From Escherichia coli (GTDB lineage: Bacteria; Pseudomonadota; Gammaproteobacteria; Enterobacterales; Enterobacteriaceae), in assembly GCF_003334785.1 (NCBI RefSeq), contig NZ_QOWV01000040.1: a stretch of 5,816 nucleotides of DNA; one strand, given 5' to 3'. Shown in pieces: positions 1 to 5,816 of this stretch. The notes below the pieces were generated by a model that was not told the origin of the DNA, did no database searches, and saw nothing but the letters and a program-made list of their open reading frames with translations. Positions within the stretch are counted from its first letter, which is position 1. Every line of letters starts with the position of its first letter. A program made the translations under genes and the position numbers.

Positions 1-607
<607 letters not shown>

Positions 608-2919: not shown

Positions 2920-3560
2920 GCATAAGTCTATCCCCTGTTTATATACTGCCATTGATGTTCACATTTTCCATTATTGGACGAACTCTGCTATTCAGAGTTC
3001 GTTATTTTTTATCTGATACGGGACATCTCTGGTATAAGACACACCCTGCTGTTCTGTCAGGAATATGGCTATACAGTATAGCTGTGGCGTTAATTATTTT
3101 ATCATCATCACCACTGCTCTACCGTATTCATGCTGTCCTTATTCTTTCGTTCATACTGCAAATGGCGGTAACGGATGCACTGACAGGTTTATTACCAGGA
3201 ACATTCACCCGGCGTTTTTTAATTGCAGGAATGCTATCACAAATCACGACTAATATATGGTGGTTCCGTACAACAGAATTTGCCACTGCTGCAATTGTCT
3301 TATTCTGCCTTCATAAATTAGTTAACCGCCATCGTCTTAATATTGGCACTGGAGACCTGTGGCTTATTGCAGGTATTACCGCATGGTCAGGGTTATATAA
3401 CGCCATATGGTGTGTGTTGCTGGGCACAGGAGGATTTGTCTTATGGCATTCAACATGGTGCATAAAAGGGCATAAAGAAGGCCCTCTGGGTCCATGGCTA
3501 TGTTTGGGCCATGTCCTTTTGCTGCTGGATAATCTTTATCAACCACTATGGGTAATCTGA
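2904..3560 (+). CDS. pilU: Prepilin peptidase, A24 family, short form without an N-terminal Cys-rich domain (PilU-like)
   Basis: Polytopic membrane protein. Contains [11 protein letters not shown] (a D…LLP motif like the first catalytic Asp of PilD/TcpJ) and [18 protein letters not shown] (a GxGDxxL…G motif like the second catalytic Asp). I prefer ATG 2904 with GGGAGG at 2892-2897 over the ORF-track start at 2877, which has no well-spaced SD. It overlaps the pilT 3' end. Stop TGA at 3558-3560. Confidence 0.72.
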
Positions 3561-4129
3561 TGAAAAAATATGACCGAGGCTGGGCATCGCTGGAAACTGG
3601 CGCGGCTTTATTGATTGTTATGCTCCTGATTGCCTGGGGAGCGGGCATATGGCAGGACTATATTCAAACAAAAGGATGGCAAACTGAAGCACGTCTTGTC
3701 AGCAACTGGACCAGTGCGGCCCGCTCTTATATAGGGAAAAACTACACGACTCTCCAGGGCAGTAGTACCACAACAACTCCTGCCGTTATCACGACAACCA
3801 TGCTGAAAAATACCGGCTTTTTGTCCAGCGGGTTTACTGAGACAAACAGCGAGGGGCAGCGGTTACAGGCATATGTGGTTCGAAACGCCCAAAACCCGGA
3901 ATTACTACAGGCAATGGTTGTATCCAGTGGTGGCACACCTTATCCAGTGAAAGCACTTATCCAGATGGCTAAGGATATTACCACTGGTCTTGGTGGATAT
4001 ATCCAGGACGGCAAAAAAACTCATCAACGGTCGTCAGATAAACCCGACACCACTGCAGGTCCGTTACCCACAAGGGGTAAGAGAAGTTCTGGGGATAATG
4101 AGCGAACAATTAGCCATATCCACCGCTGA
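3560..4129 (+). CDS. pilV: Minor pilin / pilus-tip adhesin N-terminal module (PilV-like), as encoded in the present frame; it may continue into 4016..4772 (see findings).
   Basis: ATG at 3560 overlaps the pilU stop (TGATG); an alternative ATG lies at 3548. Class III signal: short leader MKKYDRG, then [24 protein letters not shown] with Trp +1 and Glu +5. Thr/Ser/Gly-rich pilin-like body. No Cys in this frame. The last 36 codons before TGA 4127-4129 are low-complexity and Arg-rich. Confidence 0.65.
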
Positions 4130-4772
4130 TTTAACCCGAATCCTGCTTGAGGATGCTCTTCATAATATGTTTATGCCTGCGGATAACACCACAGGAAACA
4201 TAATAAGCAGAATTGAATACATCATGCTGTCGCATGATATAAATGCGCCATTACTGGCAACATTGCTGTCGCCATGGAATATCCGCTCCACGGTTATACA
4301 GGACCCGGCCAGACTTGCAGACTATCTTTCAGCTGACGCTCTCGAACATCTTGCTGAATGTTTTAATCTCAATCCGGACTGGCTGAATGGCCATGAAAAC
4401 TATCCGATAGCGTTGTCCGGTGAATGGCCAGATACTGCTGATAATTTCAGAATGCTTATTAATGATAGCAGCAACACTGAAGTTATTTTCTGGCATAGTT
4501 TCCCCTTCGCAGGAAACACGAAAAGAGAATATTGCGGGGTAATATTGAGACAGAAAAAAGAAATAAATGGTTCTGTAATATATCCGGCACTATCATTATC
4601 ACCAACACTTCTGAACGATGAAAAAAGAAAATGGTTAACTGAATATACAACCAGGCAGAATACAACAATGTCTTTGCGACGCGTCACGTTGAGACCTGGC
4701 CTTGCCGGGAACCTTATTACGGGGAAAACACTACCTGTTAGCTTATTTAATACGTCTTTATTACCCTGGTAA
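4098..4772 (+). CDS. Hypothetical protein with no recognisable motif; alternatively the C-terminal domain of a longer PilV if the frames are joined near 4013-4019.
   Basis: Long open frame (ORF track 3990..4772, TTG start; first ATG at 4098). No signal peptide or transmembrane segment. Looks helical and acidic in the first half ([31 protein letters not shown]), with two Cys (AECF, EYCG). The 3' half is AT-rich. There is no well-spaced Shine-Dalgarno for ATG 4098: GGGGA is 2 nt upstream and AAGGGG about 20 nt upstream. Confidence 0.5.
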
Positions 4773-4857
4773 ATACCAGATAGTACCAAAGTAAAAAATT
4801 ACGGCACATCCGTGTTATAGCGTTGTTTTGTCTAAATTCTGATAAACAGGAAATTAA

Positions 4858-5730
4858 ATGATGAAGAAAAATCATATTACCCGCACCATCATTGCATCTG
4901 CTGTATTATTTTCCTTTAACGCTGCAGCAGCGACGTCATATTTTGAAGCACGTAACGATGCAATGGGGGGCACCGGGGTAGCATCTTCCCATTATGGTGT
5001 GGCACCTCTGGCAAACCCAGCTTTACTGACAAAGCACAACAGCAATGATGATTTCAGCCTTCTTCTGCCGTCTGTCGGGGCACAAGTTGCTGATCCTGAT
5101 GATGTATCAAATAAAGCTGATGATGTTAAAGATGACTGGGATTTGTTTGATAGTGCTGTAGATAACCAGCATGGCGTACAACAGGCAGCAGCAAATCTTA
5201 AACATCGTCTGCAGGAATTCCGCAATATCAATGCAGATGCTCAGGTAGGTGTATCAGCTGTAGCAGCCATGGCAAATGACACTCTGCCGTTTGCCCTTAT
5301 GGTCAAGTCTTACGGAACTGTCAGCGTAAACGGAAAAGTAAACGATGCAGACCTGGATTATCTGGACAAAGTTGCCAATGGAACAATTACCGACGTCGAT
5401 AAGAATGCCCTGACCTCACGCGTATTCGGGCGTGCAGCTGTAATTACCGACGTCGGAATTTCATTTGCCAAAGAACTGGAAACGGCCGGACAAAAATGGT
5501 CTCTTGGCGTCACACCAAAATATCAGCGTGTGGACCTGTTTAACTACAACGTAACGGTTCGTGATTACGACAAAGACGATTTTGGCGGTGACAAGTACCA
5601 CAACACGAAAAACGGATTCAACGCCGATATTGGTGCTTATACAGACCTGAATGACAACTGGACTGTCGGTCTTGTTGCCCAGAACATCATTCCACGCAGT
5701 ATTGACACTAAAGTCGTCAATGGCTTGTAA
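4858..5730 (+). CDS. Secreted outer-membrane protein, putative beta-barrel with a FadL/TodX-like or TraF-like N-terminal signature; possibly truncated.
   Basis: AGGA at 4848-4851, ATG at 4858. Sec signal peptide (MMKKNHITRTIIASAVLFSFNAAAA-TSYF). The mature N-terminus YFEARNDAMGGTGVASS…LANPALL follows the x-E-x(5)-G-x-G-x-A…NPA-L pattern seen at the start of FadL-type barrels. Alternating hydrophobic beta-strand-like segments (WTVGLVAQNII). It ends …VNGL with no terminal aromatic residue. Confidence 0.55.
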   Translation: MMKKNHITRTIIASAVLFSFNAAAATSYFEARNDAMGGTGVASSHYGVAPLANPALLTKHNSNDDFSLLLPSVGAQVADPDDVSNKADDVKDDWDLFDSAVDNQHGVQQAAANLKHRLQEFRNINADAQVGVSAVAAMANDTLPFALMVKSYGTVSVNGKVNDADLDYLDKVANGTITDVDKNALTSRVFGRAAVITDVGISFAKELETAGQKWSLGVTPKYQRVDLFNYNVTVRDYDKDDFGGDKYHNTKNGFNADIGAYTDLNDNWTVGLVAQNIIPRSIDTKVVNGL

Positions 5731-5816
5731 GCGACTCGTCAGAACCGTATTGATATTTACTGAGAGCTCAGATCAACTTTCCAGGGCAACAGATCGCGTA
5801 CCCGGTTTGCCGGCCA

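Follow-up and report, generated by a model that had tools for sequence, protein, structure and literature searches.

A traF reading frame that ends in the terminus of ISCro1 on an IncFII mosaic plasmid of Escherichia coli

What brings to a close, after only 290 codons, a reading frame whose N-terminus has the look of an outer-membrane barrel protein of the FadL/TraF type? The frame in question, at 4858-5730 on the + strand, begins with ATG and specifies a product with the C-terminus ...KVVNGL*. It lies in the window, as the whole stretch of 5,816 nt analysed here is termed. An earlier note, made from the letters of the DNA, had judged it short for such a barrel and suspected a truncation or a frameshift at 5728-5730, with a genuinely shorter protein or the start of a different gene downstream as its other suggestions. 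There is little doubt in our minds that it is a dead remnant of an IncI1 traF, abutted by ISCro1 after nt 869, whose distal part was lost together with the rest of the transfer region, most likely via insertion and then rearrangement.

Over its full 5816 nt the window is identical (100%) to part of plasmid pWP7-S17-ESBL-04_2 of E. coli WP7-S17-ESBL-04 (NZ_AP022179.1, 45792-51607, reverse strand), the host plasmid of the account that follows. In this region RefSeq annotates pilQ' (N-terminus missing), homologues of pilR, pilS, pilT and pilU, pilV' (C-terminus missing), traE, an incomplete TraF and ISCro1. As the RefSeq label for the identical plasmid segment, 'conjugal transfer protein TraF, incomplete, missing C-terminus', makes plain, the truncation was already known; it is a routine IS-truncated pseudogene, a case of ordinary gene decay.

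The end of identity with IncI1 traF

The gene is identified by 99.3% nucleotide identity with traF of ColIb-P9 over nt 1-869, the first 72% of its length. Intact ColIb-P9 traF has 1203 nt and encodes 400 aa with the C-terminus ...AMAQLQFTF; traF of pESBL is of equal size. Aligned base by base, the window and ColIb-P9 agree through ...GTCAATGGCTT, the traF-like identity ending in ...AATGGCTT at window 5726, beyond which the window reads GTAAGCGACTCGTCAGAACCGT... and ColIb-P9 reads TAAAGAAACCTTC.... The BLAST match runs on to 5730, but its last few bases agree by chance, the true limit of identity being 5726. From 5727 onward the window is GTAAGCG..., the right terminal inverted repeat of ISCro1, and it is this IS terminus, not recognised in the earlier note, that is the actual cause of the truncation. 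The features concerned are listed here, the last codon of the ORF having been read from an alignment of the window, ColIb-P9 and the host plasmid, with the IS boundary given by comparison of two copies of the element.

4848..4851, + strand: putative Shine-Dalgarno-like AGGA, 6 nt 5' of the traF start codon, read from the sequence
4858..4932, + strand: putative Sec signal peptide, residues 1-25, MMKKNHITRTIIASAVLFSFNAAAA, assigned by inspection from its n/h/c layout
4858..5726, + strand: traF' remnant, IncI1 traF nt 1-869 of 1203, being codons 1-289 and the first two bases of codon 290
5725..5730, + strand: hybrid last codon TTG (Leu) made by the junction, and TAA stop; the G and the TAA come from ISCro1
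5727..5816, - strand: right end (IRR side) of ISCro1, IS66 family, 2699 bp, with terminus GTAAGCGACTCGTCAGAACCGT; the element extends past the window end
5757..5816, - strand: 3' end of the ISCro1 transposase gene (TnpC), ...WPANRVRDLLPWKVDLSSQ*, stop codon 5759-5757, from translation and the RefSeq CDS

What had been described as a clear signal peptide does have the expected layout at the N-terminus, and this putative assignment fits with a pLDDT of less than 50 for residues 13-24 of the intact TraF model discussed below. The junction itself is rare. Some 1,000 replicons in the complete E. coli records and about 1,700 PLSDB plasmids, of IncI1 type, match the query only to about window 5730, and of the 20,395 E. 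coli and 72,556 plasmid records a single one has the proximal junction of traF with ISCro1.

Were traF otherwise complete, with a frameshift or point nonsense mutation near 5728-5730 and the remainder in another frame, support would come from other + strand frames that are open after 5730 or 5764. Such frames, which the earlier note had reported as running from about 5730 and 5764 to the window end, do exist (frame 2 is stop-free from 5702 or earlier, with open stretches in frame 0 from 5754 and, once more, in the traF frame itself from 5764); none has TraF homology. The proposed check for homology continuing past 5730 in another frame came out negative, TraF residues 291-400 being found in no frame of the window: the best tblastn match over its six frames (E = 0.98) lies elsewhere, at 2621-2686, and is unrelated. 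Over the whole plasmid the best tblastn match to these residues has E = 0.16 and falls inside IS1203, and traF nt 868-1203 have no blastn match anywhere on the 94-kb molecule. The absent distal part of the gene amounts to 334 nt, or 110 codons. DNA identity to intact traF stops abruptly at 5726, with the ISCro1 terminus there instead, and to a frameshift or nonsense mutation, refuted as it is by alignment, blastn and tblastn, we accord a vanishingly small probability. The suspicion that the ORF was truncated or frameshifted holds in its first half; there is no frameshift, and the stop is IS sequence.

ISCro1, its flanks and the rearrangement

The element that meets traF' is a complete ISCro1 on the opposite strand, with tnpA, tnpB and tnpC annotated in order. 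RefSeq gives its TnpC (WP_000381395.1) as 'IS66-like element ISCro1 family transposase', and the full protein scores 477.9 bits against the NCBIfam IS66 transposase model NF033517 (cutoff 180), which places it in that family. The idea of a different gene starting downstream was right in that other DNA follows, but what follows is an ISCro1 end with a transposase gene ending on the opposite strand. Extension beyond 5816, which had also been proposed and was done on the host plasmid, passes through the rest of ISCro1 and then enters a DDE transposase gene fragment of the IS3 family, which adjoins the far (left) end of this ISCro1; it meets no distal traF. Past the IS3-family fragment come IS1203, hok/gef and then an F-type trbC fragment, a patchwork of IS-bounded pieces of different plasmid backbones.

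Where precisely are the ends of the element? An inverted-repeat search gave no IS ends, the repeats being too imperfect, and they were set by comparing the two copies of ISCro1 on the host plasmid, which are 100% identical over exactly 2699 bp. The termini are IRL GTAACCGGCTCATTTAAACCGT and IRR GTAAGCGACTCGTCAGAACCGT, both starting with GTAA, and GTAACCGGCTC.../GTAAGCGACTC... form imperfect inverted repeats. These boundaries are validated by the other copy (record 6206-8904), since it has a perfect 8-bp target duplication, CTTGAAAA. An ISCro1 of 2699 bp, the same length as here, with an 8-bp target duplication has been reported (PMC12115866). The traF-adjacent copy (record 43183-45881, its right terminus being window 5727) is flanked by AAGCCATT on the traF side and by CATTCTGG on the other. 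Comparison of both flanks reveals no matching 8-bp target duplication, and this copy is therefore not a simple insertion; the absence of a duplication indicates a secondary rearrangement, during or after the insertion, and does not tell against the identity of the element as ISCro1.

No other ISCro1 end with the complementary half-site was found on the plasmid by an exact-match scan. There is a third, partial ISCro1-like right end (record 79089-79178), with 97.8% identity over 90 nt to window 5727-5816 and annotated as an IS66-family transposase fragment; the first 14 bases of this end are not an exact match to IRR, and the half-site scan passed over it.

The order of events can, we infer, be reconstructed along the following lines. 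ISCro1 would first have inserted in traF at the target AATGGCTT, its terminus GTAAGCG completing a Leu codon and supplying an in-frame TAA, with the 290-aa ORF as the outcome. The other end of ISCro1 would then have been joined to the unrelated IS3-family fragment, either through homologous recombination of one ISCro1 copy with another or through an adjacent deletion mediated by the IS. The traF copy would have no target duplication because this later deletion or recombination replaced its far flank. That ISCro1-mediated recombination can delete a transfer region has been shown experimentally, IncHI1 Tra1 being lost in pT28R-F3 (PMC12115866).

Might the assembly rather than the plasmid have been rearranged? 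A mis-join across the identical 2699-bp IS copies would mean that in reality the IS is simply inserted, distal traF lying beyond it. Two 100% identical ISCro1 copies on one plasmid, the traF-adjacent one without a target duplication, are compatible with the swapped flanks expected of repeat collapse. However, the record is complete, with the plasmid closed into a circle, and distal traF occurs nowhere on it; the other ISCro1 copy, with its own perfect target duplication, is not the swap partner. Nor is the chimeric reciprocal junction (the left end of ISCro1 with IRL, then AATGGCTT and distal traF) present, at a coverage of at least 80%, in any of 20,395 complete E. coli records (0/20,395), the other replicons of this strain included. 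Even with a mis-join traF would still be IS-interrupted at 5726/5727. We consider this explanation very unlikely, and insertion followed by rearrangement remains the reading adopted here. Among complete E. coli records no ancestor was found in which ISCro1 is simply inserted at this point, with both junctions and the AATGGCTT duplication.

Lengths of relatives and the predicted fold of intact TraF

Could a protein of this length nonetheless be functional as a genuinely shorter TraF_2/FadL-like protein, with a smaller barrel formed from residues 25-290? In its favour the ORF has an intact start, an RBS-like motif and a signal peptide, and nothing else. That it is short for a FadL/TraF-type barrel, as the earlier note had it, is borne out by the 290 aa here against 400 aa for intact TraF and 398-405 aa for complete close homologues, most shorter entries being marked partial or residing on contigs that reach a few kb at most. 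An exhaustive search of 1.84 billion cluster representatives returned 1256 relatives, and among the best 150 of these none ends near residue 290: 136 have 372-564 aa and match through query residue ~385-400, and the remaining 14, all shorter, are fragments that end at scattered positions. The lengths of 116 diverse relatives (28-60% identity) range from 372 to 447 aa with a median of 398.5. All 116 extend through the C-terminal strand, the last 11 columns of their full-length alignment being occupied in 116/116, and conservation in this set, expressed as the majority fraction, is greater for residues 290-400 (0.49) than for residues 25-289 (0.41).

Intact ColIb-P9 TraF matches Pfam TraF_2 (PF13729) with E = 5.4e-73 over residues 50-318, covering the whole model (1-264). 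In the window copy this domain is cut at residue 289, and its product falls short of the ~400 aa, the whole domain and the C-terminal strands of a full-length member; going by the sequence, the window copy is to be classed as a pseudogene fragment of the TraF_2 family. As the last codon's G and the stop codon are themselves IS sequence, and residues 1-289 of the model hold only ~7 strands, a naturally short family member is effectively refuted by homologue lengths and strand count, and we give it next to no credence. The ORF is too short on account of truncation by a mobile element, and is neither frameshifted nor naturally short.

The FadL-like N-terminal signature that had been pointed out is recognizable by profile as well as by fold. 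Over residues ~23-72 the profile of the 116 relatives has weak matches to PorV, CymD, TodX and TbuX (E between 2e-4 and 2e-2), these PDB profile matches being confined to ~45 hatch residues with E no lower than 2e-4. At the sequence level intact TraF stays below the curated thresholds for FadL/PorV membership: it scores 55.7 bits with NCBIfam PorV_fam (curated cutoff 90) and 26.1 with T9SS_OM_PorV (cutoff 250), and no Pfam match to a FadL-family model is listed for it.

An AlphaFold2 model of intact TraF, built from the alignment of the 116 relatives, has a pLDDT of 93.3 and a pTM of 0.87 and consists of an N-terminal helical hatch and ~14 strands, which fall on the two sides of the break as follows.

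Residues 66-78, 125-138, 145-160, 188-209, 212-233, 248-263 and 268-283: strands before the break (AlphaFold2 model)
Residues 293-307, 311-318, 333-342, 346-355, 362-370, 376-385 and 389-399: strands beyond the break (AlphaFold2 model)

The best Foldseek matches of the model in the PDB are TodX, TbuX and FadL, followed by PorV, all with a probability of 1.00, the best chain of each having an E-value between 7.5e-10 and 1.3e-6 and a TM score of ~0.46-0.56. As modelled, intact IncI1 TraF shows itself to be a 14-strand FadL/PorV-like outer-membrane barrel with a hatch.

What would be left to the remnant? Counted on the full-length model (residues 1-289), it still has its signal peptide and hatch together with ~7 of the 14 strands. 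Canonical outer-membrane barrels are closed, with strands in an even number of 8 or more, and the BAM complex recognises a C-terminal aromatic signal. The remnant has neither such a strand number nor a C-terminal aromatic beta-signal (...KVVNGL). The beta-signal lost from intact TraF is of the F-x-F type, and the earlier note was right to suspect a truncated barrel without its terminal aromatic residue, intact TraF ending in F as do 98 of the 116 diverse relatives. Because the C-terminal beta-signal and ~7 strands are gone, the remnant is predicted to be unable to form a barrel and is expected to be degraded: if translated, it would be exported by way of its signal peptide, would not be folded by the BAM complex and would be broken down in the periplasm.

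A decayed IncI1 module and its known counterparts

The host plasmid is a 94-kb IncFII mosaic with eatA, a chaperone-usher fimbrial operon and a T6SS gene cluster, and with many IS copies (ISCro1 twice, ISEc47 twice, ISEc22, IS1203 four times, IS100, IS600, an IS110 family member and IS1414). Its IncI1 content is reduced to nikA/nikB and the pil/traE/traF relics; traG, traH-traY and trbA-C are absent. From this gene content the plasmid may be mobilisable, but would not be self-transmissible via the IncI1 system.

Two further scars lie in or at the edge of the window. One is a pilV'-traE' fusion (window 3548-4129 and 3975-4772) with its junction at about 4009-4016: identity with ColIb-P9 pilV ends at window 4016 and that with ColIb-P9 traE starts at 4015 (traE nt 68), inside a common GGC(A/G)AAAAA microhomology. 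This deletion took approximately two-thirds of pilV, all of the shufflon, rci and 22 codons from the start of traE, and its junction occurs in 1 of 72,556 PLSDB plasmids. The other concerns pilQ, the T4P ATPase gene, at window 1-607, whose N-terminus is gone (the RefSeq CDS is at window 74-607); on the host plasmid istA of IS100 lies close outside the start of the window, which makes this a second truncation associated with an IS at the border of the IncI1 relic. With pilQ'/IS100, the pilV'-traE' deletion and traF'/ISCro1, the window has the scars of a decayed, non-functional IncI1 pilus/transfer module on an IncFII virulence-type plasmid.

Would the loss of TraF have mattered? Tn-seq of the IncI1 plasmid pESBL classed TraF as non-essential for transfer and maintenance with a probability of 1.00 (PMC4288162), and the traF transcript is co-regulated with other tra genes (PMC5712592). 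In the present plasmid the loss of TraF is without separate consequence because the whole IncI1 mating apparatus is missing, and the truncated ORF is, to all appearances, a non-functional relic. That a 290-aa TraF' is still expressed and retained for a role, be it as a periplasmic or envelope-stress-inducing fragment or through interference with the TraF of co-resident IncI1 plasmids, strikes us as extremely improbable, and nothing in the data suggests it.

The import of the locus extends little beyond annotation, where the proper label for the ORF is an IS-truncated traF pseudogene and not a short outer-membrane protein; a by-product is a confident model of intact IncI1 TraF as a FadL/PorV-like 14-strand barrel. 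Public names for the intact protein are inconsistent, and include 'conjugal transfer protein TraF', 'F pilus assembly', 'type IX secretion system membrane protein PorP/SprF' and 'opacity protein-like surface antigen'.

How does the remnant compare with what is known elsewhere? With the IncI1-type TraF (Pfam TraF_2, PF13729) of ColIb-P9, R64 and pESBL it has in common the signal peptide, an N-terminal hatch with an NPALL motif and a position directly downstream of traE in the IncI1 transfer region. The order pilQ'-pilR-pilS-pilT-pilU-pilV'-traE'-traF' on window and plasmid fits rci-traE-traF-traG-traH of ColIb-P9, and the context is an IncI1 one. Unlike these intact proteins, the window copy is without codons 291-400, and with them without ~7 of the 14 barrel strands and the ...QLQFTF beta-signal. 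At position 290 it has Leu in place of the Phe of intact TraF, and there are two further substitutions relative to ColIb-P9 TraF, A189V and D243G.

Set beside FadL, TodX and TbuX, and PorV of the T9SS, the intact TraF model is likewise a 14-strand barrel with an N-terminal plug or hatch, but at a sequence identity of 10-15% only and a TM score of ~0.5, and with extra helical insertions at 83-121 and 163-173. The likeness is one of fold and is no demonstration of membership in the family or of hydrophobic-substrate transport.

As for the element, it shares with the ISCro1 described earlier (PMC12115866) the length of 2699 bp, the tnpA-tnpB-tnpC content, the GTAA... termini and, at the undisturbed copy, the 8-bp target duplication. 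The outcome too is like that in pT28R-F3, a plasmid transfer region beside the IS having been lost. The event in the window differs in being a historical one of which a single junction survives, and with this junction homologous recombination, adjacent deletion and cointegrate formation are all compatible.
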